In this document: positions 18,421 to 40,055 of the stretch, piece after piece | Numbering within the stretch: the first letter of the stretch is position 1 | How the letters are laid out: every line of letters begins with the position of its first letter | From: Pyrinomonadaceae bacterium | Lineage (GTDB): Bacteria > Acidobacteriota > Blastocatellia > Pyrinomonadales > Pyrinomonadaceae | NCBI GenBank assembly: GCA_035645855.1 | Contig: DASQLU010000067.1 | Coordinates: forward strand, 231 to 64,230 | Length of the DNA stretch: 64,000 nucleotides | Direction: 5' to 3' | Made by a program: the position numbers and the translations under genes | The notes under the pieces: generated by a model | Told to the model about the DNA's origin: nothing | The model's database searches: none | The model's input: the letters and a program-made list of their open reading frames with translations, nothing else

Positions 18421-19934
18421 GTGTGGAAGACAAGGTGGAGATACGGAAACTGCCGACCGGCGTGCCGGGTCTGGATGAGATATTGGGCGGCGGCTTGCCC
18501 GAGTTCTCTTTCAACATCATCGCGGGCGCGCCCGGCGGCGGGAAGACCACGCTGGCGCATCAAATCATGTTTGCCAATGTCACCCCGGAACGTCCGGCGC
18601 TGTATTTCACCGTGCTCGGCGAACCGGCCATCAAGATGCTGCGGTATCAGCAGCAGTTTCAATTCTTCGACCAGAGCAAGTTGAACACCTGCATCCGCTT
18701 CGTCAATCTCAGCCATGTGGTGCTCGAACGCGATCTGGACGCGGTGCTGGAGGAGATCGTCAAAGAGGTCGAGGCGGTCAATCCCGGCATCGTCGTGGTG
18801 GACTCTTTTCGCACCGTGGTGCGGAGAGCACAGTCCGGCGGAAGTGATATTGAACTTCAGAGTTTCATCCAGCAGTTAGCCCTTAATCTGACGAGTTGGC
18901 AGGCGACCACGTTTCTCATCGGTGAGTACGAAGCGGACGAGTTGCGTGATAACCCCGTGTTCACCGTCGCCGACGGACTCTTCTGGCTCTCGCAGCAGGT
19001 GGAGCGAAATTCCATCGTGCGGAAGTTGCAGATCATAAAGTCGCGCGGGCAAGCATCGGTGCCGGGGCTGCACACCTTCCGCATCACGGGGGCGGGGCTG
19101 CAAGCCTTCCCGCGCACCCTCGGCCTCACCGGCAGAGAAGAGAGAGTCAGGGGACGGCGACGCCTGTCGCTCGGCGTCCCCGAACTGGACGAGATGATGG
19201 GCGGGGGCGTTCCCGAAGGGGACAGCCTGCTGGTGGCCGGTTCGTCGGGTACTGGAAAGTCGCTGCTGGGAACCAAGTTCATCGTCGAGGGCATTCGTCA
19301 GGATGAGCCGGGAATCATAGTGATGTTTGAGGAACGACCCGAAGAGTACGCGGAGCGTGCCGCCGGCTTTGGCCTCGATCTGGTCGCGCCGCAGCAGGAG
19401 GGCAAACTCAAACTGCTCTACATCCGCCCCCTCGACCTGTCCGTGGATGAGACGGTGCGTGAAATCATCGACGCGGTGCAGGAGATGGGCGCAAAGCGGC
19501 TGGTGATAGATTCGCTGGCCGGGTTCGAGCTGGCGCTCGCTCCCGGTTTCCGCACCGACTTCCGGGAATCGCTCTACCGGATGATCGGCGCGCTCACGCG
19601 GACGGGCGTGACCATCCTGAGCACCGTCGAAGTGCAGGAGACTTTTACCGGGTTCTCGCTCAGTTCCTACGCGATCTCGTTTCTCAGCGACGATATCCTT
19701 CGCCTGCGGTTCGTATCGATCAACGGCCAACTCCGAAAGATGGTGGTCGTCATCAAGATGCGGCGCAGCGCGCACAGCATCGACATGCGCGAATACGAAA
19801 TCACTTCCGAAGGCTTTGTCATCGGCGAGCGATTGAGGGGCTATCGCGGCCTGACCACCGGAGCTCCAGGGCCATGGAATAGCGGGCATCGGGAAAGCCA
19901 GGAATCAATGGATGGAGTGGAAGGTAATGACTAG
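18417..19934 (+). CDS. KaiC-like double RecA-domain ATPase
   Basis: Two tandem modules. Each has GxxGLDxxLGGG (VPGLDEILGGGLP; VPELDEMMGGGVP) followed by a Walker A motif (GAPGGGKTT; GSSGTGKSL). Confidence 0.85.
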   Translation: MSVEDKVEIRKLPTGVPGLDEILGGGLPEFSFNIIAGAPGGGKTTLAHQIMFANVTPERPALYFTVLGEPAIKMLRYQQQFQFFDQSKLNTCIRFVNLSHVVLERDLDAVLEEIVKEVEAVNPGIVVVDSFRTVVRRAQSGGSDIELQSFIQQLALNLTSWQATTFLIGEYEADELRDNPVFTVADGLFWLSQQVERNSIVRKLQIIKSRGQASVPGLHTFRITGAGLQAFPRTLGLTGREERVRGRRRLSLGVPELDEMMGGGVPEGDSLLVAGSSGTGKSLLGTKFIVEGIRQDEPGIIVMFEERPEEYAERAAGFGLDLVAPQQEGKLKLLYIRPLDLSVDETVREIIDAVQEMGAKRLVIDSLAGFELALAPGFRTDFRESLYRMIGALTRTGVTILSTVEVQETFTGFSLSSYAISFLSDDILRLRFVSINGQLRKMVVVIKMRRSAHSIDMREYEITSEGFVIGERLRGYRGLTTGAPGPWNSGHRESQESMDGVEGND

Positions 19935-19943
19935 GGGTGCGTT

Positions 19944-23433: not shown

Positions 23434-26400
23434 ATGAGCAAGGGAGCCAGGAAGGGTCAGAGCAGGTCAAACGGCGCCGCCGTTCTCGACCCGGGCAAGG
23501 GCGAGCTCGCGGCGGAACATCTCGACCTGCTGAGGGAAGCCGGGCTGAGTTCGGCTAACCCTACCGTTACCCTGGCAGAATTCTCGCCGGGCGAACTCGA
23601 CGAAGACTCTTTCTGGCGCGCCGCCGGCGTCTTCCCGAACCCCCGTTTCGTCAGACCCGTCCAGGAAACTCCGGACGCGGTGGTAGCCGCAGGCGAGGAT
23701 GGCGTAGTAGTGATGCTGCGGCGCGACTTGGCGGAGGCGGATCGGGGGTTCCTAATCAAGCACGCCGTGATGCACGTCGCGCTCGGGCACATCCGCCCGG
23801 GCGATAATATCGCACACTGGGACGTGCTCTCGCGTTTAAGAGACGGGCGCCCGCTTTGCAGGTGGGACACGCAGGTCGCTGAGCACCTTACCCCGCGAAA
23901 GGCGCACACGCATGAAACCTTCTCGACGGGCGGGTTGAGTGAAATCTGGTCGCGCCTCAATTTGTTCGAACTTGACCCCCCACTTACTTCGGCGGCGCTC
24001 CTCCTCAAGTCTTACAGGCATGAGGTGGTGGAAGTGCCGCGCGCCCTCACGGAGAGCGCACAGCTCTTCCCACACCAGACGCGGGGCATTGCCGAGATCG
24101 TCGCCCGGCTGAGGCGATTTAACACGACCGTACTAGCCGACTCTGTGGGGCTCGGAAAAACACGTACCACCTGCGCCGTCATCCGGATGCTGCGCGACGC
24201 CGGAAGCCAGCGCGTGTCAGCCATACTTACGCCGCGCAAGTTGGAGCGGAACTGGCGCAAAGAGATGTCGGTCGTGGGCTTAGAGGAGGGGCACGACGTC
24301 GTTCTGCTCAACAAAGACGTCTTCAAGAGACTGTCGGTGCAGGAGGCGGCGCGGCAGCTCCGAGGGGTGGGACTGGTCGTGGTCGAGGAGGCACATCAGG
24401 ACTTGCGCAACCCGGGCAGCCGCTTCCACCGGAACCTCCGGGACTCGGTCGGATTGGCGCAAGGTCTGCTCGTCACCGCCACGCCCTGGAATAACCGCAG
24501 GGGCGACATCTTTTCCATCCTCTCTCCGTTCGTGCGCCCGCTGCCGGGCGCGGGTGAAGGGGCGTTCGAATGCTTTAAGAAAGGGTTCCGGACGGGGCGC
24601 AAAGAGTTCGAAGAGTCGGACGAGGTATTCCACCAGATATACGGCTCGGTGGTGCTGCAACGCACACGCCGCCAACTACGTGAGATGGGCGACGCCGGCG
24701 TCTTCTACGCGCCCCGCGCGCCCAAACTCGACGTGGTGGATTACAGACCGTCACAGCAGACCGCGTTCCAGACGCTCTTCGGAGTGGTCGAGGCTCTGCA
24801 CCTGCCGTACTTCAACCCGGTTCGCTACCTGACCGCCGAGTCCGACGCCGAGTGGCGGCTCTCTGGCACCTACCGTTTCTTTCTCCTCAAGCGCGCCGAG
24901 TCTTCGATGGCGGCGCTCCGCCTCACGCTCCGGAGCATGAAGGCTCGCGCCGAGGTGCTTCGTGAACAGCTGGCGGGAATCAAGGATTCGGGTGACGCGG
25001 TCGCGCGATGGCTGGGCGGTTGCTACAACATCTCCGAAGACGTCATAGAGGACGCCCTCGAATCGTCCCGCGAGGGCGTTCTGCTCGGCGAGCGGGTCAC
25101 GCGACCCAGGCAGCGGCGTGCGCTGCGGCTGATAGATGAGGCTGGGGCGAAGGGCCGGCTCAGACCCTTGCGGCGCAGGCTCATCGCCGACTGCGAAGCC
25201 GACATTAAGCTGCTCGACAAGGTCGAGAAAAAATTCGCCCCGCTCTTCGACTCCGACCCCAAGCTCGCGGCGGTCATCTCCGCCGCGCGGGAAAGCGTCG
25301 CCGCCGGGAACAAGGTGCTGCTCGTCAGCCAGTTCGCCGACACTGCTTTCACCGTCTACAAGGCGGTCATGGCTGACCCGGCGCTTGGCGCAACCGGCGT
25401 CGGTCTCGTGATGAGCACCGCCAAGGGCGGGGAGCACCCGATCCAGGCTGACGGGAGAAAGGCGACGCGCGAAGAGGTCATCAGGCGATTCGCCCCGCGC
25501 GCGTGGTCGCAGAGCGTGGTCGAACGCGGGCGCGAGAACGGTGCGGGGCTCATGCCGGGGGAGAGGGAACTGACGCTACTGGTCGGGACGGATACGCTCT
25601 CCGTCGGTCAGAACCTCCAGGACGCTCGCACTATCATCCACCTGGACCTGACCTGGAACCCGATGGTGCTCGAACAGAGAATCGGGAGACTGGATAGACC
25701 TCGCCACGAGACCGACGACAGTCCCATCGAAATCAGATACTTCCTCAACCTCGACCTCATCGAGGCAGAGCTTGAGCTGAAGAAGCGGATTGACGCCCGA
25801 CTCGCCGCCACTTATCAGGACACGTCGTTCGACGACGAGATTCTCCCTGGCTATTTCGAGTTGATCGAAACAATGCGGCGTCTGCGAGCCTCGCGCGCGA
25901 GCGAAAATGCCATCGCTGAAGAAGTGGATGCGATGCTGGAAGAGCTCGCCGCTGCGCGCCCCCCCGACGTCGGCGACTTAAACGTCGAGTCGCGCCGTCG
26001 TGCGCTGGAGCGGCTGGGCGACGCGGTTTCAGGGCAGGAATTGCCGGAGCCGACGCCCCCCCTCGTCGTAACGGTGGGGCAGGTTGATAACGGCGCGGCG
26101 GAGATCGCTGCGGAGCTAATGTTCGAATCGTTCGATAACAATGGTGTGGAGATAGGTCGACCATTAAGCCACTTATTAGTGGTCAGCATTGCATCGGGAG
26201 ATATCAACGCCGCGCTCGACGATTTGCCCCGCACCGTAGACATTATGCTTCGCCCGCCTTTCGAGGGAACTGCGATCAACGAGGGCGTGCTTGAGCACCT
26301 GCGCGCGTTCGATCAGGAAGTGGAGAGGGTAGCCGGCGAGTTGCGTGATGAGAGGAATCGCCTGCGTGAGAAGCGGAAAAAGATACGCGAGCGCATCCGA

Positions 26401-28164: not shown

Positions 28165-31100
28165 ATGGAAAAACCCTCATTCAAGAAAACCTCAGCGGCG
28201 AAGCTGGACGAGCGACTGGAAGAATTCTTCATACGACAACTCGGTTACTCCGCCCCTATCAAAAATGATCCGGACGAGAAGCCGGGCGATCCCCACTACT
28301 GGCGCATGGTCTTTCCCCTGCCTAACTCACGACCGCTCGCCGTGGCTTACCAGGCCAACCTGTCAACGATGAAGCGGCAGGACGTCGCGCGCCTCTACAT
28401 CAATAAGGTGGTGCCGCACCGCGACAGTACGCCGGCCCAGCCAGCCCCGATTCTTTATGTGTTTACGGACGGAGCGCGGTTCGTCTTCTTCAGCGCGGAT
28501 ACGGCGCGTAACCGCGACGACCGCTTCGACCTCTCCGATGAGACCTGGCAGTTCGAGGGCGTACGCGGGAAGGTCGAAGCCTTACGCGTTAGCGGCGAAG
28601 AGACGCCGCTCGCGAGCAGCCGCGACAAGGTGCGGTTCGGCAATCTGATCTTTCAGAAGCGGTTGGGGAAACTGACGCCGCAGGTCGAGTTCCTCTTCGA
28701 TTCTTCGCACCTCTCGGCGGACAACCGCTTCAAGAATTACGTGCGCGACGTGCGCCGCCACTTGATGCAGGAGGTCGTGGCGGACGAGGCGGCGCTCGCG
28801 GCAGTCATCTACCACCTGCTGGAGACGCCGGAGGCGCGCGAGGGCAAAACCGACACCCTCTATGCCGACAAAAGCGTGAACAAGAAGGGGGACGGTTACA
28901 CGCTGAAAAAATCGCTGGACGAGTTGCATCTGGAATTGAAGACGCGGCTCGGCGACGCGGTGGCGGCGGCGGTGGACACGCTCTTGCTGCGCTATGTGAT
29001 GGTGCGCTTCCTCGAAGCATATCACCCGGAGGCGATGGAGGGGCTGCTCGGCTCGAAAGAGATGCTGACGAAGGGCAACCGCAGGCGCAAGAGCGCGATG
29101 TTCGACGGCAAGACCGGGAAGAAGCTCGACGCGACGCTCTACGATGCGGAGGGCGTCCGCACGTCGAAGTTCAGTCAAGAGGAGTTGGAGCTGGCGCAGT
29201 TGTTTTCGCGCTCGCTGACCGTCGACGCTTCCAGGGCGCAGAAATCCAGAACGCGCAAAGCCGAAGCCGCGCAGGGCGACCTGTTCATCATCGAGAACAC
29301 AGCCGTCGTGCTCGAAGAGGAGGAGAAGCGGGAGCGCACGCTGGGGGGCGATTTCTACCTGGCGGATTTGGGCAAGGCGGCGCGGGCAATTGAGGAGACA
29401 CTGCTGAGGCAGAAGGACACGCGCGGCTCGATGCTGTTGCAGGATTTCTTAGGGCGGACGGGCGAGACGGTAGAAGAGACGGGCGCGTCACGCTGGCAGT
29501 TCCGCTACGAGGATTTGAAGCCGAAGACCTTGCAGGACTACTACGAGGATTCGCTCTCGACCGCCGTGCAACTCACCTACAACGCCGACGCCGGCGAGTT
29601 CAGGGTTGAGGTCGGCACGTCGAACCGCCAGCGCAAGGAACTCGGGGCTTACTACACCAATGAGCACCTGTGCCGCTTCATGGTCGAGCGCACGGTGAAG
29701 CCTCTGTTCGACGAGCGGCTTGAGCGGCTGCGTGTGAGCGTGGAGCGAGGCACGGCGCATGAGGCGCGCTCCGCGTTCGATGCGGTGATGAGCTTTTCGG
29801 TGTGCGACCCGACGATGGGGAGCGCGCCCTTTTTGCGTTCGGCGTTCGATTATCTGGTCGAGTCAACGCAATACTTCCAGTTGCACCGCCACGTCGCCGC
29901 GCTGAAGGGGCGGCACGCGGCGCTGTACGAGGAGATCGTCGGGGAGTACGAATTTCTGGGCGCGAAGGGTGGGCGGCTCGATGCGAACGGCATCGGCGGT
30001 TGGGAGTGGCACGTCCTGCGGCGCGCGCTCTACGGCGTGGATATAGACCTCAAGGCGGTGTGCATCGCGTGCCAGACGTTCGCGCTCTCTTCGATGCGTC
30101 ACCTCAAACAGGGCGAGCGGTTTCCCTCTTACTTCAACATCAACCTCAAGCTCGGCAACGCGCTGATTTCGCCCACGCGCCCGGCAGACCGCGCACGGCT
30201 CGCCGCCGAACACGGGGCGGAGATTGCGGAGCTGATACGCCTGCGGCGGCGCGCGCAGAGCTTGCCGAACACGGAAGAGGCGTATGTGGAGCTGGTGGAA
30301 CTGTTCAGAGAGGCTGACCGCGTGCGCCTGCCGATTTTGCGCGGGCTGGTGGAGGAGCACGTCTATCCGGTATTGGAGAATTTCACGGACGAGCTACGCC
30401 CGTTCAGTTGGGAGCTTGAATTTCCCGAAATATTTTTCAACGCGGACGGGACGTTGAAGGCGGCGGCGGCAGGCTTCGACGTAGTCATCGGCAACCCGCC
30501 GTGGGAAGCGATCAAGTTTAACGACAACGAATTTTTGCGCTCGATTAACGCGGGCGACGGCGCGAGCGTCGAAAATTTGAGCAAAGAGAATGAGGCGGTG
30601 GCGGACGCCTACGAGCATTATCGCGCGTTGATTGAGCGTTGGAAGTCCTGGGTCAGCGACGGCGGGCAGTATGAGCGGCAGCAGGGCGGGCGCGACCGCA
30701 ACAAGTGGCGGCTCGCAACGGAAGTCTCTTGGAAGCTGACGCAGCCGCAGGGCGCGTTGAGCCTCGTCGTTCCCGGCGGCATCATCGCAGACGAAGGCGG
30801 CTACGCGCTCAAGCGCTGGATTTTCCCCGAAGGCGAGGCGCACACGTTCATCTCTTTCGAGGAGACTAATAATGTGTTCTCAGGCACGCAAGGTTTCACC
30901 TTGATGGGTTTCCGTAAAGGGCGAGCGACGAAAGAGGTACGACATCTAGAAGGTCTAACTAAAGCTGAACAACTGATGGAGATGGGCTTCGTCCCCGCCG
31001 CGCTATCATTGGCGATCATCGAAAAGATGAGCCCGCTTGCCCTGGCCGTGCCGTCAGTGCGCGATAGCCTTGATAGTTCAATCATCGAAAAAATATATCA

Positions 31101-31836
31101 GCACCCCTTAGTTGTAGATAACACGGCTTCATGGCACGCGCGCGCAGTTTCTTACGACTATCATATGGGTAACGACCGTGAACACTTCGAGCGGGGTGGG
31201 AAAATCCGGTTGCTGGAAGGTAAGAGCGTTAAGGCGTATGAAATCGTCCCTGATAGCCAGATAGAAAAAAGGGTTGCTGCGCGTCGTCAGCATGAAGAGG
31301 ATGGACAATACCGGGTAGGCTGCGGCGCGATTGCGGGTATGTCGCTAGCCCGTCGCATGTTCTGTTCCATCTTACCTCACGGCTACGCGACAGGTGATAG
31401 TATCAACATCTTCCTGATTAATGGAGACAACGCCACACGACTTTTACTTGTTGCTGTGCTTAACAGTTTAGTGGTGGAGTGGCGTGTGAGACAGATTGCT
31501 CGTAATAACAACATCAATAAATTTATGATGGCGCAGCTTCCCGTGCCGCGACCGCCGAGGGCGGATGTTGAGAGAATCGCCGCGCTCGTCGCCGCGCTCG
31601 TCACGGCGGACGCGCGCCTCAAGGATTTGCAGCCGCTCCTGAACGGCACAAAGCCTGCCAGCACCGAAGCCGCGCGCCACGACCTCAAATGTCGCATTGA
31701 TGCGGAAGTGGCATACCTCTTCGGCTTGACCGAGGAGGAACTCGACCGCGTCCTCGACTCCTTCGACAAAGTGCCCGCCGCCACCAAAGACCTCGTGCGC
31801 TCGCACTTCAAAACTTTAGCCGCAGGTAAGGCATGA
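28165..31836 (+). CDS. Large gamma-class N6-adenine DNA methyltransferase (Eco57I / PglX / DrmMI-like)
   Basis: Strong RBS (ggagaaggaag before the ATG). LGAYYTNEHLCRFMVERTV, motif I VCDPTMGSAPFL (29801-29833), motif IV VVIGNPPWEAIKF (30490-30507), and a TaqI-like C-terminal target-recognition region (LLEGKSVKAYEI). The about 480-aa N-terminal region has no recognisable nuclease motif. Confidence 0.85.
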   Translation: MEKPSFKKTSAAKLDERLEEFFIRQLGYSAPIKNDPDEKPGDPHYWRMVFPLPNSRPLAVAYQANLSTMKRQDVARLYINKVVPHRDSTPAQPAPILYVFTDGARFVFFSADTARNRDDRFDLSDETWQFEGVRGKVEALRVSGEETPLASSRDKVRFGNLIFQKRLGKLTPQVEFLFDSSHLSADNRFKNYVRDVRRHLMQEVVADEAALAAVIYHLLETPEAREGKTDTLYADKSVNKKGDGYTLKKSLDELHLELKTRLGDAVAAAVDTLLLRYVMVRFLEAYHPEAMEGLLGSKEMLTKGNRRRKSAMFDGKTGKKLDATLYDAEGVRTSKFSQEELELAQLFSRSLTVDASRAQKSRTRKAEAAQGDLFIIENTAVVLEEEEKRERTLGGDFYLADLGKAARAIEETLLRQKDTRGSMLLQDFLGRTGETVEETGASRWQFRYEDLKPKTLQDYYEDSLSTAVQLTYNADAGEFRVEVGTSNRQRKELGAYYTNEHLCRFMVERTVKPLFDERLERLRVSVERGTAHEARSAFDAVMSFSVCDPTMGSAPFLRSAFDYLVESTQYFQLHRHVAALKGRHAALYEEIVGEYEFLGAKGGRLDANGIGGWEWHVLRRALYGVDIDLKAVCIACQTFALSSMRHLKQGERFPSYFNINLKLGNALISPTRPADRARLAAEHGAEIAELIRLRRRAQSLPNTEEAYVELVELFREADRVRLPILRGLVEEHVYPVLENFTDELRPFSWELEFPEIFFNADGTLKAAAAGFDVVIGNPPWEAIKFNDNEFLRSINAGDGASVENLSKENEAVADAYEHYRALIERWKSWVSDGGQYERQQGGRDRNKWRLATEVSWKLTQPQGALSLVVPGGIIADEGGYALKRWIFPEGEAHTFISFEETNNVFSGTQGFTLMGFRKGRATKEVRHLEGLTKAEQLMEMGFVPAALSLAIIEKMSPLALAVPSVRDSLDSSIIEKIYQHPLVVDNTASWHARAVSYDYHMGNDREHFERGGKIRLLEGKSVKAYEIVPDSQIEKRVAARRQHEEDGQYRVGCGAIAGMSLARRMFCSILPHGYATGDSINIFLINGDNATRLLLVAVLNSLVVEWRVRQIARNNNINKFMMAQLPVPRPPRADVERIAALVAALVTADARLKDLQPLLNGTKPASTEAARHDLKCRIDAEVAYLFGLTEEELDRVLDSFDKVPAATKDLVRSHFKTLAAGKA

Positions 31837-32411
31837 CCGCGCGCACACTCCACGTCCATCTCAGCCGCGAAGCTGCCGCCCGCCTCGACGGCGACAGCAA
31901 TGCCGCCGGGCAGACGCTCCGCGATTGGCTGCTCGATGCCTTCGAGCGACGGATAGAGCCGTGCCTCGCCCACGCCTCGCTCTTCAGCACCTCAATCGAA
32001 GTCGCGCCGGACGTGCCCCTGCTCATTGAAGCCTACACGCGCATCGCCGCCTGCACGCCCGAAGAACTCATCGAAGCGTGGCTCATGGAGCCGCCCGCCG
32101 CCGACGGCGCAGTCAAACGCGCACGCGTCGCAGCCACGCCCGCCGCCGCTCCAACTCTGTCCGGCGAGACGCTAGGCAAAGTCGCGCAAGTCCTCGACAT
32201 GGGTGAGACGCTCCTTGAAGCCTTCGCCGCCGACGCGCGCCGCAAGCTCGGCGGCACGTACCCCGAAGGCGACAAAGCGGCGCAGACCATGTCCGAAATC
32301 TTTCGCGCCCTGCGCGTCACCATCGGCTTGCAACAGCCCGCGTCTCAACCCGCCGCACGAGGCGATGTGGGTGTAACCCCAATTCATATCGAGCCGACTC
32401 CACATGAGTGA
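31833..32411 (+). CDS. Small protein with N-terminal ribbon-helix-helix-like segment
   Basis: The ATG overlaps the methyltransferase stop (ATGA at 31833-31836). TLHVHLSREAAARLDGDSNAAGQTLRDWLLDAFERR fits a strand-helix-helix pattern. The rest is Ala/Pro-rich. Confidence 0.5.
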   Translation: MTARTLHVHLSREAAARLDGDSNAAGQTLRDWLLDAFERRIEPCLAHASLFSTSIEVAPDVPLLIEAYTRIAACTPEELIEAWLMEPPAADGAVKRARVAATPAAAPTLSGETLGKVAQVLDMGETLLEAFAADARRKLGGTYPEGDKAAQTMSEIFRALRVTIGLQQPASQPAARGDVGVTPIHIEPTPHE

Positions 32412-35400
32412 CCGCATCATCCAATTCATCAACGAGGCGCTGCGCCCCGCGCCCGAAGGGATGCAGTTCGAAGTGCTCGAACGTGCGGTCGCGGATAAGC
32501 TCGGTCACCCGGTCGCGCGCGGCTCGCTGCGCAGCCTCCTCGTCCGCAACTCGAACCTATTCGTCGAGGACGCCGGGGGGCGCTGGAGGCTAAGGGTTCA
32601 CGCGGAAACAGTGGAGCCCGAGGACGGCGAGCCCGCCGCCGGTCAGGTCTTACGCAAGCCCCTCACGCGCGGTCGCTTCGTCGTCTTCGACCTGGAGACG
32701 CTCGGGCGGGAGGCAGCCGGCGACGACATAGAGATTATCGAAATCGCCTGCGCCAGGTACGAAGGCGGTCGCCGTGTAGACACCTGGCAAACGTTCGTGC
32801 GTCCGAGCACGAGCATCCCCAAGCTCATCACCGAGCTCACCACTATCACCGACGACGACGTGAGCGACGCGCCCGGTCAGCGCGAAGCCCTCGAAGAATT
32901 CTTCCGCCGCACCGCCAGCTACCCGCTCATCGCGCACAACGGCTTCGCCTTCGACGGCGTCGTGCTCCGTAACGTCGCCACGCGTGTCGGTCTGGAAGTC
33001 CCGGCAGACCTGGTTCTGCTCGACACACTCCCGCTCGCGCGCCTGTTCCTGCAAGGCGCGGGGCAGCGGCATAACAACGAGGCGTTGGCCGAGCACTACG
33101 GAAGTTTTCGCACGGGTGCGCACCGCGCCGACGCCGACGTGGAGATGCTCTGCGGCACGGTCGAAGGTCTCATCGGAGAGACCAACAGGCACCCGGCAGG
33201 GGCTTTAATTTATGAGCTGCTGCGACGCTCCGGCGAGCCTTGGGCTGACCTCCTCGATCCGCCGCAACACTCCTTCGACCTCGAAGCAATCCTCTCCCTC
33301 TTCGGCGGCGCGCAGAAGCCGCTCCTGCCGACGCCTGTTGAGAGGCGCGGGGCGTTGGGCGCCTCCGCTCCCATTCAGGGCGCGGAAGAGGGCAACGTCA
33401 ACGAACTGTTCGAAGAGATGGCTCGCGCCGGGCGCGAGCGGCGCGAGCCGCAGATACGGTTCGCGCAACTCGGCGCCGAAGCCCTGCGCTCGGGACGTTT
33501 CGCCGTGGTGGAGGCGGGCACCGGAACGGGTAAGAGCCTCGGCTACCTCGTGCCCGCCGCGCTGCACGCGCGAGCCGCCGGCATGCCGGTCGTCATCTCG
33601 ACCTATTCGAAAGTGCTTCAGACACAACTCGTCGAGAAGGATGTCACTTACCTCAGCAGTCTCCTGCCGGATTTAACCGCCGCCGTTCTCAAGGGGCGTG
33701 GCAATTATCTCAGCATCCGGCGGCTCCGCGAAGAGATTATAGACGCCGTCGATGAAGACAGGATTTCAAGGGCGCGTGCGTGGACGCTCGGCACGCTAAC
33801 GTCGTTCTCGCTAAGTTCTGAAACAGGCGAGCTGGAATCGGTTTCTTTCGCCGTCGATAATCTTGACGAATACCTGGACTCGCGGGGCGAGGCGTTGCGC
33901 GTGCGCGACAGCGTCAGGGCAAGTGCGGGTGGCGGCGGCGGTCAGCCGGAACGCCCGGCGGGCGGGCGGCTCGACTTCTACGAGGCGGCGCGGGAGAACG
34001 CCAGCCGCGCCGACTTGATAATTTTAAACCACAGCCTGCTGCTCACGCAGGCGGTTATGGCTGGAGACCGACTACCCGAGCTGCTGTCGCCCTTCGTCGT
34101 CTGTGACGAGGCGCACAACCTGGAAGACGCCGCGACCTCCGTGCTCAAAAACGAAGTCACCGAGGTCAGCTTCCGCCGCCTGCTCCGTGCCGTCCACGAC
34201 AAGAGCCGCCGCGCCGGATTGCTGGCGACGGTGCGCAAGGCTGGCGTTGCTGCAAGCGATGAGGCGATGACCTCCGCGCTCGGCGCGCTCGCGGACGTCG
34301 AAACTCATTTCACCAACCTTTCTACACGGCTAAGGTCTTTCGTCGTCGCCAACACCATCCAGTCAAAGGAAGACCTCGCACGCTTCGGGGCGCAGGTCGA
34401 AATCCGTCCCGCCAGCCTGCAAGGGTCTGGGGGAGGAGCCCTGCGCGAATCCGCGCTCGCCCTGCGCGAAGCCCTCTTCCGCCTGCGCCCCGCGCTCGAC
34501 GCGGTTGCGAGACGCACACTCGGCGCGGACGCCGACGCACCGGCGGGCGGCGCGGAAGTCTCACGGCGTCGCTCCGAGCGCGCGATTCGCCTGGCCCGCT
34601 TCATCATCCACGAGCTGACCGAAGTCGAAAAGACGCTCAACTGGTTCTGGACGTTCGCGGAGGCGACCGCCTACGTGCGGGTGATCGGATTGCAACCCGA
34701 GCGCTACGGGGGCACAGCCACGTGGACGCTCGAAGGTTCGCCGATTGACGTGAGCGCGCTTCTCTACGAAAGGCTGTGGTCGCGGCTCGGAGCCGGAGTC
34801 TTCTGCTCGGCGACACTGGCGACATACGGAGATGGGTTCGGCTTCTTCCTGCGTCGAACCGGCGTCGGTCGCCTCGGCGGAGCCCGCCTCATCACCGAAA
34901 TCCTGCCGCACGTATTCGACTACAAGTCCAACGCCCTGCTCGCGCTGCCCGCTCACCTGCCGACGCCCCGCGACGAGGCGCTCAAGGAGTTGTTCCCACA
35001 AGCGATTGCGAACGAGATGCTGCGGTTCATTCCGCACTTTCACGGGCGCACGCTAGGTCTCTTCACCGCGAGGTCTCGCATGCACGCCGTGCACGAGCAG
35101 GTCGAAGCGCCTTTGAGGGAGCAGGGTTATCCCGTGCTCCGCCAGGGCGACGGCGCGCTCGACCGGCTGCGCCAGGAGTTCGAGGGGCACGAAGCGACGA
35201 GCCTCTTCGGCGTGCGCTCGCTGTGGGAGGGTATCGACGTGCCGGGGGCGTCGCTCTCCTTCGTCTTCATGAGCAAGATGCCTTTCCCGTCACTCGGCGA
35301 CCCGCTTGAGGCGGCGCGCAACGCGGCGGTCGAGCGCGCCGGCGGGAACAGCTTTTACGACTACTTCCTGCCGCGCACCATCTTTACCTTCAAGCAGGGG

Positions 35401-37878
35401 TTCGGACGCCTCCTGCGCTCGGAGACGGATCGCGGCGCGGTCATCCTCTTCGACAAGAGGCTGCGCGGGGCGACCTACCGCCCGGATGTACTTCAATCGC
35501 TGCCTGCACCCACCATCTCCTACGACTCTGACGTCGAGATGTACAGGCGCATCTCCGAATGGATGGGGGAGCCTTTCGACGAATCGCTCCTGGCGCCGCT
35601 GCCGCTGCGCGAGATCGATCAACTGCTCGCGGAACACACGCTGGCGAAAGCGATCTATACGGAAGAGGAGTTCGAGGAGGTGGTGCTGCCACACCTCAGG
35701 GCTGTGCTCAAAGGCGTGTGGGGCTTCGACGACTTCCGCCCCGACCAGCTCAACGTCATCCGCCACGTCCTGACCGGGCACGACCTGCTCGCGCTCTACC
35801 CGACCGGCGCCGGCAAGAGTCTGACCTTTCAGCTCCCGGCGCTCATACGTCCCGGTCTCACCCTCGTAATCTCGCCCCTCATCGCCCTCATCCGCGACCA
35901 GGTGCAGAAGCTCAGGCACGAGAACGAGGTCGGCTTCGTTAACTGTCTGGTCAGCGGCATGACGGCGATGGAGCAGGAGGAGGTCTTAAGCGACGCCCGC
36001 TCGAACCGCTTGCGTATCCTGTACGCGTCGCCGGAACGCCTACGCGACCCGAGGTTTCGCGCCTTCCTCGCCGACCTCCCCATCGTTCAGTTGGTCATCG
36101 ATGAGGCGCATTGCATCTCGACGTGGGGGCACGACTTCCGCCCCGATTTTCTGGAGATCACATCGCTCCTCCCGGCAGCCGAGCAGATTCCCATTCAAGC
36201 ACTGACCGCCACCGCGACGACGCCCGTGCGGGCTGAAATTAAGAATGCGTTACGGCTCGGGGACAGGGGGCTTCCGCTCGCAACCCTCGTTGGGGATTTC
36301 CGGCGCGACAACTTAGTTTTCCGCGTCTTCCGACCGCAGTCCGGGGCAGAGCGCGACGCCCTCGCCGTGAGCCTCGCGGCGCAAATCGTCGGCGACGCCG
36401 AGCGGGGAGGCGCCGGAATCATCTACGTCGCCACGAGGCGGGAGGCGGAGCGCATTGCCGGGCTTCTACGGGCGAGGAACATCGCCGCGCAGCCCTATCA
36501 CGCCGGGCTTCCCACGCCCACCCGGCACCACATTCAAGAGCTCTTCATGCAGGGCGAGATACAGGTAGTCGTCGCCACCAACGCCTTCGGCATGGGGGTG
36601 GACAAGCAGGAGATCAGGTTCGTTTTGCACTACGACCACCCGAGTTCGGTCGAGGCATACGTCCAGGAGTCAGGGCGCGCCGGTCGTGACGGGCGCGAGG
36701 CTTACGCCATCCTGCTCTACTCTAAGCGCACGCAAGGCACCCATCGCTTCCTCGCGCGGCAGGGCGTCCCGAGTCCCGATGAAATCGTCGAGGTGGCGCG
36801 GCAAATTCTTAACCCCGCATTCGACGGGGCGCTCAGGCTGACTGATGGCACCGTGCACACATCGATGGAGAGTCTCGTGGAGGAGTTGGGCTTCGAGGAC
36901 ACCAAACTCAGGGTCATCATTCATGCCCTGGAGGGGAGTGAAATCCTCAAGCGGGGTGAGGATTTCGCGCTGGAGGCGACCGTGCTACTCAACCGCCCCT
37001 CTCCGGAAATTGTTCGAGAGCTTTCCGGGGAAGACAAGGCGCTCTTCGAAATTCTCTCGGAGGCGTTTGGGTTCGCCGTCGACACGCGCAGCCACTACAA
37101 CTCCTTGCAATTCGTGCGCGCGACCTCACAATCACCCTCGTCGGTAGACCGCCTGCTTCACCGTCTGGCGCTCAAAGGCGATCTCATTTACCGGAGCTTC
37201 GCACGCGGGAGCAGTTTCGCGCCCGGCGAGCGGGCTTTAGACAGCCGGGCAGTGAGGGACGCCGCCGGCAGGTTTCAAGATCGTCTTGCTCAGTTCACAA
37301 GACGCCTCAAAGACATCATCCGCTACGCCGAACTGGGCTCAGACCGGGGGCACTGTCGCGCCAAATTCCTCGTCGAATACCTGACGGGCGCGGGCGCCTC
37401 TTCGGAGTCTGCCGGTGCGCCAGGAAAGTGCGGGAAGTGCGACCTGTGTGCGCCCGGCTACCCGCTGCCGTGGTCGCAGGCGGCCGTGATCGCGCCCGAG
37501 CCGCTGCAAGTCGAACCGACCATGGCGATACTTGAAATGGTGCGCGACCATGAGACGAGTAGTTCGATTAACACGCTCATCAAGATGTTGCTGGGGGAAG
37601 CCTTCGGCAACGCCGGCGGCGAGCGGTATTCACTCTCCGCCTACGCACGGAACTCCGAGCACTTCGGGGTGCTGCGCGGCAGATCGAGTCACGTAAAACT
37701 TAAAAGCTACTTCGACGCGCTAACGGACGGCGGATACATTGCCGTGGTCGAACGCCAAAGTGCGGGCGGCGGAACTTACAGATCGGTGCGACTGACGGAT
37801 CGCGGGCGGGACGTCTTAGCCGGCGCCGTCCCCGCCCCGGGTAGCGGAGAGCCGATCACGGTGGAGGACGCCACTTGA
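32404..37878 (+). CDS. 1824-aa fusion: HARE-HTH-like N-terminus / DEDDh 3'-5' exonuclease / DinG(XPD)-family helicase / RecQ-family helicase with Zn-finger and C-terminal wHTH-like tail
   Basis: Overlaps the upstream gene by 8 nt.
- Exonuclease: FVVFDLETLG (ExoI), IAHNGFAFDGVVL (ExoII), HRADADVEML (ExoIII).
- DinG: VEAGTGTGKSLGYLVPA, VVCDEAHNLEDA, SLWEGIDVPG, FKQGFGRLLRSETDRGAVILFD.
- RecQ: FRPDQLNVIRHVL, YPTGAGKSLTFQLPA, VIDEAHCISTWGHDFRPDF, ALTATAT, VVATNAFGMGVDKQEIRFVLHYDHPSSVEAYVQESGRAGRDG, GKCGKCDLC. Confidence 0.9.
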   Translation: MSDRIIQFINEALRPAPEGMQFEVLERAVADKLGHPVARGSLRSLLVRNSNLFVEDAGGRWRLRVHAETVEPEDGEPAAGQVLRKPLTRGRFVVFDLETLGREAAGDDIEIIEIACARYEGGRRVDTWQTFVRPSTSIPKLITELTTITDDDVSDAPGQREALEEFFRRTASYPLIAHNGFAFDGVVLRNVATRVGLEVPADLVLLDTLPLARLFLQGAGQRHNNEALAEHYGSFRTGAHRADADVEMLCGTVEGLIGETNRHPAGALIYELLRRSGEPWADLLDPPQHSFDLEAILSLFGGAQKPLLPTPVERRGALGASAPIQGAEEGNVNELFEEMARAGRERREPQIRFAQLGAEALRSGRFAVVEAGTGTGKSLGYLVPAALHARAAGMPVVISTYSKVLQTQLVEKDVTYLSSLLPDLTAAVLKGRGNYLSIRRLREEIIDAVDEDRISRARAWTLGTLTSFSLSSETGELESVSFAVDNLDEYLDSRGEALRVRDSVRASAGGGGGQPERPAGGRLDFYEAARENASRADLIILNHSLLLTQAVMAGDRLPELLSPFVVCDEAHNLEDAATSVLKNEVTEVSFRRLLRAVHDKSRRAGLLATVRKAGVAASDEAMTSALGALADVETHFTNLSTRLRSFVVANTIQSKEDLARFGAQVEIRPASLQGSGGGALRESALALREALFRLRPALDAVARRTLGADADAPAGGAEVSRRRSERAIRLARFIIHELTEVEKTLNWFWTFAEATAYVRVIGLQPERYGGTATWTLEGSPIDVSALLYERLWSRLGAGVFCSATLATYGDGFGFFLRRTGVGRLGGARLITEILPHVFDYKSNALLALPAHLPTPRDEALKELFPQAIANEMLRFIPHFHGRTLGLFTARSRMHAVHEQVEAPLREQGYPVLRQGDGALDRLRQEFEGHEATSLFGVRSLWEGIDVPGASLSFVFMSKMPFPSLGDPLEAARNAAVERAGGNSFYDYFLPRTIFTFKQGFGRLLRSETDRGAVILFDKRLRGATYRPDVLQSLPAPTISYDSDVEMYRRISEWMGEPFDESLLAPLPLREIDQLLAEHTLAKAIYTEEEFEEVVLPHLRAVLKGVWGFDDFRPDQLNVIRHVLTGHDLLALYPTGAGKSLTFQLPALIRPGLTLVISPLIALIRDQVQKLRHENEVGFVNCLVSGMTAMEQEEVLSDARSNRLRILYASPERLRDPRFRAFLADLPIVQLVIDEAHCISTWGHDFRPDFLEITSLLPAAEQIPIQALTATATTPVRAEIKNALRLGDRGLPLATLVGDFRRDNLVFRVFRPQSGAERDALAVSLAAQIVGDAERGGAGIIYVATRREAERIAGLLRARNIAAQPYHAGLPTPTRHHIQELFMQGEIQVVVATNAFGMGVDKQEIRFVLHYDHPSSVEAYVQESGRAGRDGREAYAILLYSKRTQGTHRFLARQGVPSPDEIVEVARQILNPAFDGALRLTDGTVHTSMESLVEELGFEDTKLRVIIHALEGSEILKRGEDFALEATVLLNRPSPEIVRELSGEDKALFEILSEAFGFAVDTRSHYNSLQFVRATSQSPSSVDRLLHRLALKGDLIYRSFARGSSFAPGERALDSRAVRDAAGRFQDRLAQFTRRLKDIIRYAELGSDRGHCRAKFLVEYLTGAGASSESAGAPGKCGKCDLCAPGYPLPWSQAAVIAPEPLQVEPTMAILEMVRDHETSSSINTLIKMLLGEAFGNAGGERYSLSAYARNSEHFGVLRGRSSHVKLKSYFDALTDGGYIAVVERQSAGGGTYRSVRLTDRGRDVLAGAVPAPGSGEPITVEDAT
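32665..33200 (+). other. DnaQ-like DEDDh exonuclease domain of the 1824-aa protein
   Basis: DLET at about 32689, HNGFAFD at about 32935, H-x4-D (HRADAD) at 33121-33144. Confidence 0.8.
33400..35500 (+). other. DinG/XPD-family superfamily-2 helicase domain lacking the Fe-S cluster cysteines
   Basis: Walker A at 33508-33540, DEAH at 34099-34119, motif VI-like at 35390-35420. There is no Cys between Walker A and DEAH other than the one in VVCDEAH. Confidence 0.75.
35700..37460 (+). other. RecQ-family helicase domain with distal Zn-binding cysteines
   Basis: Motif 0/I at 35725-35824, DEAH at 36095-36118, motif VI at 36664-36693, CGKCDLC at 37429-37452. Confidence 0.8.
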
Positions 37879-39368
37879 GATACGCCCGCCCGGTAAATTA
37901 CCGACTCAACCCTCGCCATGAGATTTCCCTCCTCGACCGGGTGGCGGGCGAGTTCTCAACTTCCCGCTACACCTTCACGGAAGAGGAGGCTTTAGCCGAC
38001 GTGTGGACTTCGGGAGAGGACGTGCGCCTGCGCGAAGACTCACGCTTTTGGGAGATTGAAGGAACCGGGCATTTTCAACTGGCACAGCACTCTCTCGCAA
38101 ACGAAACGCTCGTCGACCGCCTTTGGCAGGGCGTGTGGGACGGTTCCGACGTCGAGTCTGAGTTGCGGCGTCTCGACGAGGCAGCAGGTGGCAGCTATCA
38201 CGTGTTCTGTCCGGCAGACCCGCGCTTCGTAGGGCAGGAAGGAAGGCTGATTTTAGCAGCCTGCCCCACCGTCGCATTTACGGAAGAGGTGCGCGCGGCG
38301 TTTGACGCCTTGGCTGGAGAACTCCTCCGGTACCACCGCCAGAGCGGGACGCCGCTCAACACACGGGAGTTCATCGAACTCGTGCTTCGGATTAAGGACG
38401 ACCTGCCAGTCGAAATCGATGACGTCGAGCAGGCGGAGAGTTGGCTGTGCGGGAGGGGAGAGTGGGCGGAAATAGCTCGCTCCCTGTGGCTCCCCGCAGA
38501 CATGGTTCCGGTTTTGGAGACACCGAAGCCTCTTAGGGTCTGGCGCATCCACGGCGGACACGGTCGAGAGGTCGGGGCGGAAGAGTGTCAGGTTGTCGAA
38601 CCGGCTGAGAGTGAGGGCGATGCACCGGAGGGCTGCGTCCTTCGCTTACCTGACCCTCCGGTCGAGCGACACCCCGACTCCGCCGTCTCCTGGACACACA
38701 CACTGCGCGCCGTACACATCCTCGGCAACTACCTGCCGGTGCCGATTGGTGCGCGCTTTCGCTATCCGCGTTTCGTCGGTCGAAACGGGTCGGTAGCCAT
38801 CCACGCGCTTGCACACAGCACGGGGCGCGAAGGCTACCTTTGGCTTGACCGTGAGCACCACCGATTCTCCGGGGATTTGCTCAGGGATATTATCGAGTGG
38901 GAGGAAGCAGGTCGCAAACTCGTAATCAACTGGCGACCAGAAGGCGTCGTCATCCTCCTTGGTGAGGTAGACCACGAAGTGCTGCGAGAGGAGCGGCGCC
39001 ACGTCGATCCCAAGGCGCTTCACGAATTGAGAATGGGGCGCGGCGAATCTTACCGGCGAGCGCTCGGCACCATCCTTAAACAGCATGACGCCGGTGTAAG
39101 CTTCCGGACTCTTTACGATGAATTGGTGAAAGTTCAAGGACACTATCCTGGCCGTCAGTCGATCCGGGCGGTGCTTACTCAGTCACCCGAATTTTCCTAT
39201 GAAAATTCGGGCTGGCGCTGGCTCCCCGTCCCGGGGGCGGCTGAAACATTCAGGAGGCGCGTCGTACTCGGCGACCTCACGGCTGCCGCGCCCGGGCGAG
39301 GTAATGACCTCGGCGCTCTCGCCGACGCGGTCGGCTCGGCAATAAGGGAGTTACTCTCCCGAGGCTAG
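37875..39368 (+). CDS. Hypothetical protein with C-terminal HARE-HTH-like domain
   Basis: A TTG start overlaps the upstream stop (cacTTGAga, 37875-37878). The C-terminus YRRALGTILKQHDAGVSFRTLYDELVKVQGHYPGRQSIRAVLTQSPEFSYENSGWRWLP fits the HARE-HTH pattern ending in G-W-x-L. No Cys cluster, so it is not DUF1998-like. Confidence 0.6.
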   Translation: MRYARPVNYRLNPRHEISLLDRVAGEFSTSRYTFTEEEALADVWTSGEDVRLREDSRFWEIEGTGHFQLAQHSLANETLVDRLWQGVWDGSDVESELRRLDEAAGGSYHVFCPADPRFVGQEGRLILAACPTVAFTEEVRAAFDALAGELLRYHRQSGTPLNTREFIELVLRIKDDLPVEIDDVEQAESWLCGRGEWAEIARSLWLPADMVPVLETPKPLRVWRIHGGHGREVGAEECQVVEPAESEGDAPEGCVLRLPDPPVERHPDSAVSWTHTLRAVHILGNYLPVPIGARFRYPRFVGRNGSVAIHALAHSTGREGYLWLDREHHRFSGDLLRDIIEWEEAGRKLVINWRPEGVVILLGEVDHEVLREERRHVDPKALHELRMGRGESYRRALGTILKQHDAGVSFRTLYDELVKVQGHYPGRQSIRAVLTQSPEFSYENSGWRWLPVPGAAETFRRRVVLGDLTAAAPGRGNDLGALADAVGSAIRELLSRG

Positions 39369-39414: not shown

Positions 39415-39570
39415 TGCCAAAAACCCACACTTTTCGAACACGAATACACGTCGGGATTCAACTTCAAGAATGTAAAGATAGGACGCTTCGCGCTCGAAAA
39501 TCCGGTCGCCCGTTTTTATCAAGGCACACGCGGAGATCATGCCAGTGCCACATATGACGGTTTAATGTGA
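39415..39570 (+). pseudogene. Barnase-family ribonuclease, C-terminal remnant only (N-terminally truncated)
   Basis: The frame is open only from 39415: TLFEHEYTSGFNFKNVKIGRFALENPVARFYQGTRGDHASATYDGLM, then a stop. Compare the barnase C-terminus READINYTSGFRNSDRILYSSDWLIYKTTDHYQTF: the E-x-x-YTSGF segment, the Arg and the DH positions are retained. There is no start codon, and its TGA overlaps the GTG of the barstar-like gene. Confidence 0.55.
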
Positions 39571-40055
39571 TGCACCTACCAGAGCAATTCTATCTATCGG
39601 CCAACGAGCCGCCTGTAATCTTCATGCCTGAAGATGAGGCTGATAACTTTGTTTATGAGTTGCAATGCGACCCTGACGGCGGGGCAGTGAGAGTTATCCG
39701 TGGCCGGAAATGCCCCACCTCCGCCGCCCTGCATAACGAAGTCGCAGCCGCGCTCCAATTCCCCGGTTATTACGGCGAGAATTGGGACGCGATGGACGAA
39801 TGTATTACCGACCTGGCCTGGATGCCTGCGCGGTGGTACTTGATTCATGTGAACGACATAGAGCTAATCCTGCCGGACGACGAGAAGGGCTTTAATATCT
39901 TCCTTAGAATCCTGCGTGACGCGGGAAGGGCCTGGGCGCACCCGGAATCGCGTGGTCTGGCTAATGACGAGGAGAGAAGTTGCAGGCCGTTTAATGCAAT
40001 CATCTCCGGCTCGGGAGAGGGGCTTCTACGCGCGGGGAAGGCGCTCGGCCGGTAA
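39567..40055 (+). CDS. Barstar-family ribonuclease inhibitor (immunity protein)
   Basis: LHNEVAAALQFPGYYGENWDAMDECITDL closely matches the barstar core [28 protein letters not shown]. Confidence 0.8.
   Translation: MMHLPEQFYLSANEPPVIFMPEDEADNFVYELQCDPDGGAVRVIRGRKCPTSAALHNEVAAALQFPGYYGENWDAMDECITDLAWMPARWYLIHVNDIELILPDDEKGFNIFLRILRDAGRAWAHPESRGLANDEERSCRPFNAIISGSGEGLLRAGKALGR

Follow-up and report, generated by a model that had tools for sequence, protein, structure and literature searches.

Six adjacent genes from a Pyrinomonadaceae bacterium (Acidobacteriota) form, in our reading of the sequence, a single conserved operon in which an SNF2-family ATPase and a large N6-adenine DNA methyltransferase (methylase) are joined to an exonuclease-helicase fusion and a multi-domain, probably DNA-binding protein. 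The genes lie in a 64,000-nucleotide (nt) stretch of contig DASQLU010000067.1 (assembly GCA_035645855.1, positions 231 to 64,230 of the forward strand), which we analyzed at its full length and call the window. With moderate confidence, we take the operon for an immune system that resembles restriction-modification, belongs to the "SNF2 motor plus large N6-adenine methylase" kind, and is equipped with a different effector module; it would share its theme with DISARM class 1, ARMADA, and BREX type 3. The genes, together with the part of the methylase that appears to choose its target, are as follows (positions in the window; lengths in amino acids, aa).

23434–26784, + strand: protein 1 gene, 1116 aa, SNF2-family ATPase
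26815–28128, + strand: protein 2 gene, 437 aa, GTG start, accessory protein
28165–31836, + strand: protein 3 gene, 1223 aa, gamma-class N6-adenine DNA methyltransferase
30562–31764, + strand: target-recognition region of the methyltransferase, about aa 800–1200 of protein 3
31833–32411, + strand: protein 4 gene, 192 aa, small conserved protein
32404–37878, + strand: protein 5 gene, 1824 aa, DEDDh exonuclease, DinG, and RecQ fusion
37875–39368, + strand: protein 6 gene, 497 aa, TTG start, multi-domain, probably DNA-binding

These six open reading frames (ORFs) run in one direction and occupy 23434–39368 exactly, and all the coordinates and overlaps given in an earlier note, made by a model from the letters of the DNA (hereafter, the sequence-only reading), were recovered when we read the sequence back. 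Gaps of 30 and 36 nt separate genes 1 and 2 and genes 2 and 3, respectively. The other three junctions, read directly from the sequence, are start/stop overlaps: ATGA between the methylase and protein 4 (context gcATGAcc, at 31833), ATGAGTGA between proteins 4 and 5 (context cacATGAGTGAcc, at 32404), and TTGA between proteins 5 and 6 (context cacTTGAga, at 37875). Because these overlaps join them, the methylase and proteins 4, 5, and 6 constitute one linked unit. Homologue N termini align from residue 1 of both proteins with unusual start codons, the GTG of protein 2 (MAKSSELF...) and the TTG of protein 6 (MRYVRP...); in public gene calls, protein 2 starts further in, at a length of 419 aa (Joint Genome Institute, JGI) or 397 aa (NCBI). 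The window has identical counterparts in a 210-kb contig of a JGI soil metagenome (Ga0193589_1000009) and in proteins of an NCBI metagenome-assembled genome (MAG) labelled Pyrinomonadaceae, Acidobacteriota.

To compare loci, which we number with the prefix L, we used protein 6 and the methylase as anchors. A gene order of SNF2, (protein 2), methylase, protein 4, (insert), exonuclease-DinG-RecQ, protein 6 was recovered in the window and in L008, L009, L010, L020, and L027, the last of which is on the same contig as L005, and part of it was present in a dozen shorter contigs. The gene set that the sequence-only reading had treated as one unit is found in this order in at least six independent loci, with 42–83% identity to the window proteins; one of them, L008, comes from a MAG labelled "uncultured Clostridia." The flanks differ from locus to locus and include VWA and microcompartment genes, Kelch and glycosidase genes, a polyketide synthase (PKS) cluster, and a transposase. 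Since the same gene order recurs across so many independent contigs, the arrangement is far beyond chance. It is also rare: when one genome per species was searched, seven loci were found among 185,579 species, all in MAGs (Pyrinomonadaceae, Blastocatellia, Entotheonellaceae, and one "Clostridia" bin), and the JGI metagenome collection yielded 18 loci.

Evidence for marking of self comes from the methylase. When the six proteins were scanned with Pfam, PADLOC (PADLOC-DB of 2023), and NCBIfam, protein 3 matched Pfam Eco57I, and since its motif I (DPTMGSAPF, aa 548–556, nt 29806–29832) and motif IV (NPPW, aa 777–780, nt 30493–30504) are both invariant in 24 homologues, its identification in the sequence-only reading as a gamma-class adenine methyltransferase is borne out, with the refinement that it is of the Eco57I type. 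A match to TIGR02987 (Alw26I/Eco31I/Esp3I family) scores 119 bits, below the cut-off, and the PADLOC type IIG and DrmMI matches are weak. Among the same 24 homologues, conservation is highest in aa 1–300, and the region beyond aa 800, with few invariant columns, is the most variable part of the system. Loci L008 and L010, which sit at the same genomic site, have SNF2 proteins, proteins 5, and proteins 6 that are 92, 93, and 87% identical, respectively, and their methylases are 86–99% identical over aa 1–700, but only 25–30% identical over aa 800–1100. To judge from this alignment, the difference is a clean recognition-domain exchange. Such an exchange is the hallmark by which a switch of specificity is recognized in Type I, ISP, and IIG enzymes, as it is in the methylases of BREX, and the swap between these sister loci supports sequence-specific marking under diversifying pressure.

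The pattern of gene loss points in the same direction. Intact orphan methylases, with SNF2 remnants or with none, are present in L011, L017, L022, and L024; in L011 and L024, fragments of the SNF2 gene lie just upstream of the intact methylase, and L034 is decaying throughout. Conversely, all loci that encode proteins 5 and 6 have a methylase wherever the contig reaches far enough. That loss of the attack genes is tolerated, whereas loss of the methylase was not seen, is as expected of a self-marking system. The proposal of the sequence-only reading that the methylase marks self therefore gains backing, both from the recognition-domain swap and from the intact orphans beside SNF2 remnants. At one further locus (L009, 5654–13630), two methylase genes of the family stand in tandem with a copy of protein 4 between them, one of the two being split by frameshifts; this doubling could be a duplication giving two specificities or an assembly or long-read error.

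An Eco57I-type gamma N6-adenine core followed by an exchangeable C-terminal recognition domain is also the plan of Type ISP and IIG enzymes such as LlaGI, MmeI, and Eco57I, and in both cases one reader would serve modification as well as restriction. However, those enzymes are single polypeptides that carry a recognized Mrr or PD-(D/E)xK nuclease and, in Type ISP, an SF2 motor, whereas the operon appears to have its motor and nuclease on separate proteins. No nuclease or Type_ISP_C profile matched the methylase in Pfam, PADLOC, or NCBIfam.

For protein 1, the label of SNF2 ATPase is backed by matches to Pfam SNF2-rel_dom and Helicase_C, with a core at about aa 200–800, and by motifs GLGKT, EEAH, TATPWNN, and motif VI, all intact across four orthologues. 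The closest PDB structures are a Sulfolobus SNF2 protein and RapA, and RapA is also among the sub-threshold profile matches. The best matches in the defence libraries (DpdE, HKD+Snf2, DrmD, BrxH) score 60–90 bits over partial stretches, compared with NCBIfam cut-offs of 500–1100, and the second-best NCBIfam match is the model of a "phospholipase D-like domain-containing anti-phage protein." The termini (aa 1–200 and 800–1116) match no family and contain no PLD/HKD nuclease domain by Pfam, and the N-terminal 200 aa gave no match in a PDB profile search. Within this N-terminal part (aa 100–130, within nt 23434–24033) there is a conserved block, LIKHxxxHxALGHI...D.IAHWD, with an H-x3-H-x4-H pattern. 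We considered an ImmA/IrrE-like HxxxH zinc peptidase and rejected it, as there is no catalytic Glu and no PDB match.

The closest outside relatives that we found for the methylase and SNF2 protein are two-gene systems in which an Eco57I-like methylase is paired with a PLD-SNF2 helicase, one in Priestia megaterium (JBHJZR010000012.1, L037) and one on a metagenome contig (L038). By tblastn, their methylases are 25–28% identical to protein 3 over 87–92% of its length, and their SNF2 cores are 32–34% identical to protein 1 over aa 211–837. These systems share with the operon a homologous methylase and SNF2 core encoded by adjacent genes, which overlap in the two-gene systems, but the gene order is reversed and there are no proteins 2, 4, 5, or 6. 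In addition, the L037 helicase has an N-terminal PLD/HKD nuclease (PLDc_2, RE_NgoFVII) that protein 1 lacks. The PLD-SNF2 helicase corresponds to NCBIfam NF042964, the "phospholipase D-like domain-containing anti-phage protein" model. The methylase and SNF2 protein are thus an old, co-inherited pair. That the motor has lost its nuclease in this lineage fits delegation of DNA destruction to protein 5.

The sequence-only reading had described the architecture as "DISARM-like but distinct" and had likened proteins 1 and 3 to the DrmD and DrmMI pair of class 1 DISARM. Distinctness held up: PADLOC and NCBIfam assign the six genes to no named system, the matches being weak and partial, and our literature searches for a system of SNF2, DinG, RecQ, and methylase returned no description of this gene set. 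The comparison with DrmD and DrmMI survives as an analogy of theme; the closest relatives by sequence are the methylase plus PLD-SNF2 pairs. The absence of DISARM and BREX signature genes, also part of that reading, was confirmed by the Pfam, PADLOC, and NCBIfam scans, and partners of the DUF1998/YprA, PglZ, BrxC, PLD, and DUF499 kinds are absent from the operon. We rejected DISARM, BREX, Dpd, Hma, Zorya, MADS, and PsyrTA as assignments, since all matches in these libraries were sub-threshold or of a generic helicase or methylase kind.

DISARM class 1 resembles the operon in pairing an SNF2 helicase with an N6-adenine methylase of more than 1100 aa in a multi-helicase operon, but has DrmA (YprA-type), the DUF1998 protein DrmB, and, in some cases, the PLD protein DrmC, all three of which are missing here, where the exonuclease-DinG-RecQ fusion and protein 6 are found instead. 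The DISARM_DrmD models of NCBIfam give protein 1 62 bits (cut-offs 610 and 950), PADLOC DrmMI gives the methylase 65 bits over partial stretches, DUF1998 matches none of the six proteins, and the only DrmA match (40 bits) is to the generic helicase-C part of the SNF2 protein. ARMADA systems, which comprise a BrxHII/RapA-like SNF2 protein, a large PglX-like NPPW methylase, and further helicases, have been shown by experiment to provide direct, non-abortive anti-phage defence for which all genes are required (PMC12458937); by analogy, this speaks for immunity here. Types I and II share with our operon the SNF2 protein, the large NPPW methylase, and helicases in a co-directional arrangement. However, ARMADA is defined by a YprA-family helicase (ArmC), to which type II adds a GajB-like UvrD-RelE protein (PMC12458937); neither is encoded in the operon, in which the third helicase is the exonuclease-DinG-RecQ fusion. 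For BREX, there were no PglZ or BrxC matches, and the PglX models scored 19–20 bits against cut-offs of 500–900. For Dpd, a system of 7-deazaguanine DNA modification and restriction, DpdE scored 90 bits (cut-off 500) and DpdF 182 bits (cut-off 550), and a scan of the six proteins and of 20 larger ORFs from the flanks detected no DpdA, DpdB, DpdC, or queuosine-pathway family. Hma systems combine a DUF499 (BrxC-like) ATPase with a methylase and an SNF2-nuclease (PMC12839542); the operon has no DUF499 ATPase gene, and the HmaA match (37 bits) is confined to the helicase-C region. DISARM, ARMADA, and BREX-3 are thus thematic analogues only.

The part of the operon that sets it apart from these systems is protein 5. 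Its Pfam matches (RNase_T, DEAD_2/Helicase_C_2, and DEAD/Helicase_C) and its NCBIfam matches (DinG PRK08074, 451 bits; RecQ, 392 bits; TIGR00614 recQ_fam, 344 bits against a cut-off of 219.8) agree with the exonuclease-DinG-RecQ fusion proposed in the sequence-only reading, and all sets of catalytic motifs are intact. Its parts are as follows.

aa 1–70: small, N-terminal winged-helix-like region
aa 93–250 (nt 32680–33153): DEDDh 3′-5′ exonuclease
aa 339–1037 (nt 33418–35514): DinG-type SF2 ATPase without Fe-S cysteines
aa 1097–1469 (nt 35692–36810): RecQ core

After the RecQ core, an insert of ~200 aa displaces the RecQ zinc motif and is followed by a C-terminal domain. The conserved motifs are DxE, HN..FD, and H-x4-D in the exonuclease, GTGKS and DEAH in the DinG part, and GAGKS and DEAH in the RecQ part; the protein lacks the Fe-S cysteines that proteobacterial DinG has. 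The closest PDB structures are RecQ (4tmu) and a 3′-5′ exonuclease DinG (8zef). Profiles and motifs together place the protein with exonuclease-DinG of the Gram-positive type and with RecQ.

A full-length fusion of the same exonuclease, DinG, and RecQ architecture, 1649 aa long, is encoded on plasmid pTT27 of Thermus thermophilus HB27 (TT_RS10770; L040, 10105–15054), where it is annotated merely as a "RecQ family helicase." It is 29% identical to protein 5 (E 1e-121) in an alignment that runs from aa 93 to beyond aa 1500, and tblastn extends the match to aa 1805. The gene has Cas3 on one side and the type III-B Cmr genes on the other, and three genes that are small or of unknown kind come after it; unlike protein 5, it stands without a methylase, SNF2, or protein 6 gene next to it. 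A 514-aa "BglG" gene downstream was considered as a protein 6 homologue and rejected, hhalign being negative. The Thermus DnaQ-DinG-RecQ protein was noted in 2005 as a "unique three-domain fusion" (PMC1274311). The fusion is therefore not peculiar to the six-gene system, and the Thermus protein may belong to a different, equally uncharacterized system.

If the fusion can stand apart from a methylase, are there two systems here rather than one? The most serious rival to a single immune system is that two independent systems lie side by side, an SNF2 and methylase module, with or without the HEPN-like gene, and a helicase-nuclease module of proteins 4, 5, and 6. Each half has stand-alone relatives, in the methylase plus PLD-SNF2 pairs and in the Thermus pTT27 fusion, and defence systems often cluster and act synergistically (PMC12458937). 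However, the start/stop overlaps bridge the boundary from methylase to protein 4 to protein 5, and a methylase is upstream in every evaluable protein 5/6 locus of the clade. Moreover, the SNF2 protein lacks the nuclease of its stand-alone relatives, so that the first half alone would be without an effector, and decay takes the SNF2 gene and the genes for proteins 4–6 together and leaves the methylase. We consider two adjacent systems unlikely.

Within a single immune system, what would connect marking to destruction? Protein 6 is a candidate. A Foldseek search with its AlphaFold2 model (mean predicted local distance difference test [pLDDT] 83, predicted template modelling score [pTM] 0.77), one of the checks that the sequence-only reading had named, returned structural matches at the level of domains only. 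A beta-rich module resembles DNA-binding pseudobarrels of the B3 type, among them the one at the N terminus of the restriction enzyme LlaJI.R1 (6c5d), with probabilities of 0.96–0.97; further domain matches are to 5yzy and 4ldy, and several winged helices were matched, among them the N-terminal domain of the RNA polymerase delta subunit (2krc; probability 0.41, TMt 0.48, a weak match). No catalytic domain was recognisable. As modelled, protein 6 is probably a multi-domain, non-enzymatic DNA-binding protein with winged-helix-like modules, a B3/LlaJI.R1-N-like module, and a C-terminal winged helix. The "HARE-HTH-like" tail ascribed to it earlier was not confirmed, since PF05066 (HARE-HTH) matched none of 22 protein 6 members and the structural match to RNA polymerase delta and its winged helix is the single weak one given above; a distant relative, P0244, has a sub-threshold PF05066 match in a different region.

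Among 53 protein 6 homologues, no Pfam domain was found except in fusions to S24 peptidases. These fusions, in which a LexA/UmuD-type S24 peptidase forms the C terminus, account for five of the 22 aligned homologues (P0018, P0021, P0026, P0034, and P0039; for example, L005, 10001–12079) and carry a GxSMEP serine, a VKRY lysine, and an upstream AAG that resembles a LexA cleavage site. Their sequences hint at RecA-dependent control of the system in the S24-fused lineages. A profile search of 1.84 billion representatives recovered about 30 full-length protein 6 clusters. The N-terminal domain also heads a family of 740–930-aa proteins, with no Pfam match in the members sampled, and in a few proteins, among them P0232 (1225 aa) and P0261 (901 aa), a protein-6-like region (profile positions 15–444) forms an N-terminal fusion with sigma-70 regions 2 and 4; apparent transcription factors thus also make use of the module. 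In a viral contig of 178 kb (L039, 6602–11029; IMG/VR UViG_3300042731_011014), a 1116-aa Type ISP-like methylase (Eco57I, N6_Mtase, and Type_ISP_C) is followed after 3–4 nt by a gene for a 357-aa protein whose N terminus is 36% identical to residues 17–128 of protein 6, which, as far as sequence goes, is an independent link of the protein 6 N-terminal domain to large methylases. The conflict contexts in which relatives of proteins 5 and 6 occur, the Cas3/Cmr neighbourhood in Thermus and the methylase neighbour on the viral contig, would speak for immunity.

Proteins 2 and 4 are harder to place. In the AlphaFold2 model of protein 2 (pLDDT 86), an alpha/beta N-terminal part is followed by an all-alpha C-terminal part, in which the Rx4H motif (R368-x4-H373, nt 27916–27933) lies. 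This motif, on which the sequence-only reading had called the protein HEPN-like, is real and invariant in 16 full-length homologues, but a HEPN profile or fold was not matched: Pfam HEPN/Apea matched none of the 16 members, hhalign against the bona fide Pfam-HEPN protein of L026 was negative, and protein 2 matched nothing in Pfam, PADLOC, NCBIfam, a PDB profile search, or Foldseek against PDB and BFVD. One homologue carries the JGI label "Apea-like HEPN." That protein 2 is a HEPN-type RNase is plausible but unproven. Since the gene is missing from L010 and L019, it appears to be dispensable. Protein 4, by tblastn orthologues, sits between the methylase and the big helicase in all complete loci, and its N-terminal ~60 aa also occur as a separate 80-aa ORF in L005. 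It matches no Pfam family. The sequence-only reading had seen a ribbon-helix-helix (RHH)-like protein here, and this gained no support, as no RHH family was among the matches of eight members, two of which weakly match Cro/C1 helix-turn-helix models instead. We describe it as a small protein with a putative role in DNA binding or as an adaptor.

Between the methylase and protein 5 is a slot of variable content, which may hold Uma2 genes, a gene for a 371-aa protein of unknown kind (L005), or a Pfam HEPN gene (L026, between the methylase and protein 4). In L008 (14117–15929) and L010 (14089–15281), one or two Uma2 (DUF820, PD-(D/E)xK-like) genes and a conserved 199-aa gene lie between the genes for proteins 4 and 5. 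An accessory slot that appears to take up Uma2 endonuclease-family and Pfam-HEPN genes in other loci also argues for immunity.

How might such a system work? We base the first step of a model on sequence evidence and infer the four that follow. First, the methylase would read a specific sequence through its exchangeable C-terminal region and methylate adenine, so that host DNA is marked as self. Second, the SNF2 protein, without its relatives' PLD nuclease, would serve with the methylase as a double-stranded DNA translocase that is engaged at unmethylated sites. Third, protein 5 would unwind the target and degrade it 3′-5′, with DinG and RecQ motors of opposite polarity, in a manner like that of RecBCD/AddAB or WRN. 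Fourth, protein 6 would guide or gate protein 5, and its LexA-like domain would, in some lineages, add control by RecA and single-stranded DNA. Fifth, protein 4 might have an adaptor or regulatory role, and optional back-up effectors might be supplied by protein 2, which may be a HEPN RNase, and by the Uma2 and HEPN genes inserted in other loci. More specifically, and only tentatively, we suggest an unrecognized defence family in which a specificity-swapping methylase and a nuclease-less SNF2 protein pass unmethylated DNA via protein 6 to a bipolar helicase-exonuclease "shredder," with LexA-like gating by a RecA/single-stranded DNA alarm in some lineages and with no dedicated endonuclease.

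Several observations weigh against an immune system of this kind. Among the core genes, we identified none for an endonuclease that could make the initial cut; a cryptic activity might reside in the conserved methylase N terminus or in the SNF2 termini. The best conserved part of the methylase, aa 1–300, is without a functional assignment, and the HEPN assignment of protein 2 comes from its motif alone. That protein 6 also reads the methylase target was considered and ruled out: between L008 and L010 it shows no hypervariable block, and no part of it co-varies with the methylase recognition region, which leaves the methylase as the only sequence reader. Searches of 72,556 plasmids and 50,697 phages returned no protein 6 homologue. 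Every instance comes from an uncultured organism, in metagenomes or MAGs, and most are from Acidobacteriota. The flanks of the window and of the other loci are mostly housekeeping genes and form no clear defence island. Finally, DinG and RecQ are classical repair helicases. The Fe-S-less exonuclease-DinG proteins of Firmicutes are reported to relieve replication stress (PMC12525004).

The last of these points raise the possibility that the operon is a genome-maintenance or epigenetic module, in which the mark would serve strand or origin discrimination and the other enzymes would process stalled forks or repair intermediates. DEDDh exonucleases, like DinG and RecQ, count as classical repair and replication-stress enzymes (PMC12525004), the housekeeping flanks would suit such a role, and a connection to the SOS response is suggested by the fusions of protein 6 to a LexA-like S24 peptidase. 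However, the distribution is extremely patchy (seven loci in 185,579 species genomes), the genomic position changes between lineages, the recognition region has been swapped between near-identical loci, decay to orphan methylases is frequent, and Uma2 and HEPN nuclease genes have been inserted at some loci. Patchiness, mobility, swapping, decay, and accessory nucleases are typical of conflict systems, not of core repair, and we regard a maintenance role as quite unlikely.

The surroundings of the operon bear on whether it is cargo. G+C content falls to 0.53 at 21001–24000, compared with 0.60–0.66 inside the operon, over a stretch that spans a Methyltransf_23 gene (22028–22894) and a 539-nt spacer and that is compatible with an insertion border. 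The sequence-only reading had described gene remnants and an AT-rich spacer in the flanks; no remnant genes were identified, and it is this dip and the differing flanks that would support horizontal acquisition. Conceivably, the operon could be an addiction cassette of a selfish kind, or cargo carried by an unrecognized mobile element, for example, an anti-restriction or establishment module, and bring the host no benefit. The G+C dip at the upstream border, the variable flanks, and a DDE transposase near L005 would fit, and large methylase and SNF2 proteins are reportedly found on conjugative elements. However, the window contains no integrase, relaxase, tRNA, or repeat boundary that we could find, the plasmid and phage collections hold no protein 6 homologue, and the single match on a viral contig is to one domain of protein 6. 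Selfish cargo is, in our view, a most improbable explanation.

Other features of the window were recorded on either side of the operon. About 190 nt upstream of its start, in the low-G+C intergenic region, there is a perfect 15-bp stem with an 8-nt loop (23206–23243, + strand; AGACTCCGCCAGCTA...TAGTTGGCGGAGTCT), which may terminate the upstream gene or represent a regulatory element or insertion scar. Further upstream (18417–21587, + strand), a double-domain KaiC-like ATPase gene is followed by a gene for a PAS-histidine kinase-receiver hybrid. The KaiC-like gene was considered as part of a MADS-like system and rejected, since its mad8 match (31 bits) is to the P-loop and neither gene is conserved beside the other loci. 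Directly downstream of the operon is an orphan gene for Barstar, a barnase inhibitor (39567–40055, + strand), and a gene for an Imm53 immunity protein follows at 45848–46351 (+ strand); no cognate toxin was recognized beside either, and the two look like what is left of polymorphic-toxin conflicts. A gene for a 583-aa dynamin-family GTPase (46815–48566, − strand; PADLOC LeoA 88 bits, LeoBC 77 bits), some 7 kb beyond the end of the operon, may be part of an Eleos-type defence system.

Systems that combine an SNF2 protein with a large methylase (DISARM, ARMADA, BREX-3, and Hma) are widespread, and how they stop phage DNA is still unclear. The operon described here is a natural swap experiment, in which the methylase and SNF2 core has been kept and the usual third component has been replaced by an exonuclease with two helicases of opposite polarity, together with a new DNA-binding partner. 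If the operon is shown to defend its host, the SNF2 and methylase pair would be established as a "self/non-self reader" that is portable and able to act through effectors of quite different kinds. A role would then be found for the orphan Thermus DnaQ-DinG-RecQ fusion, known since 2005, and the occurrence of LexA-like domains on protein 6 would suggest that restriction-like immunity is connected with the SOS signal. To our knowledge, the Acidobacteriota, a major soil phylum, have almost no characterized immune systems, and the operon would extend the known diversity of defence into this phylum.

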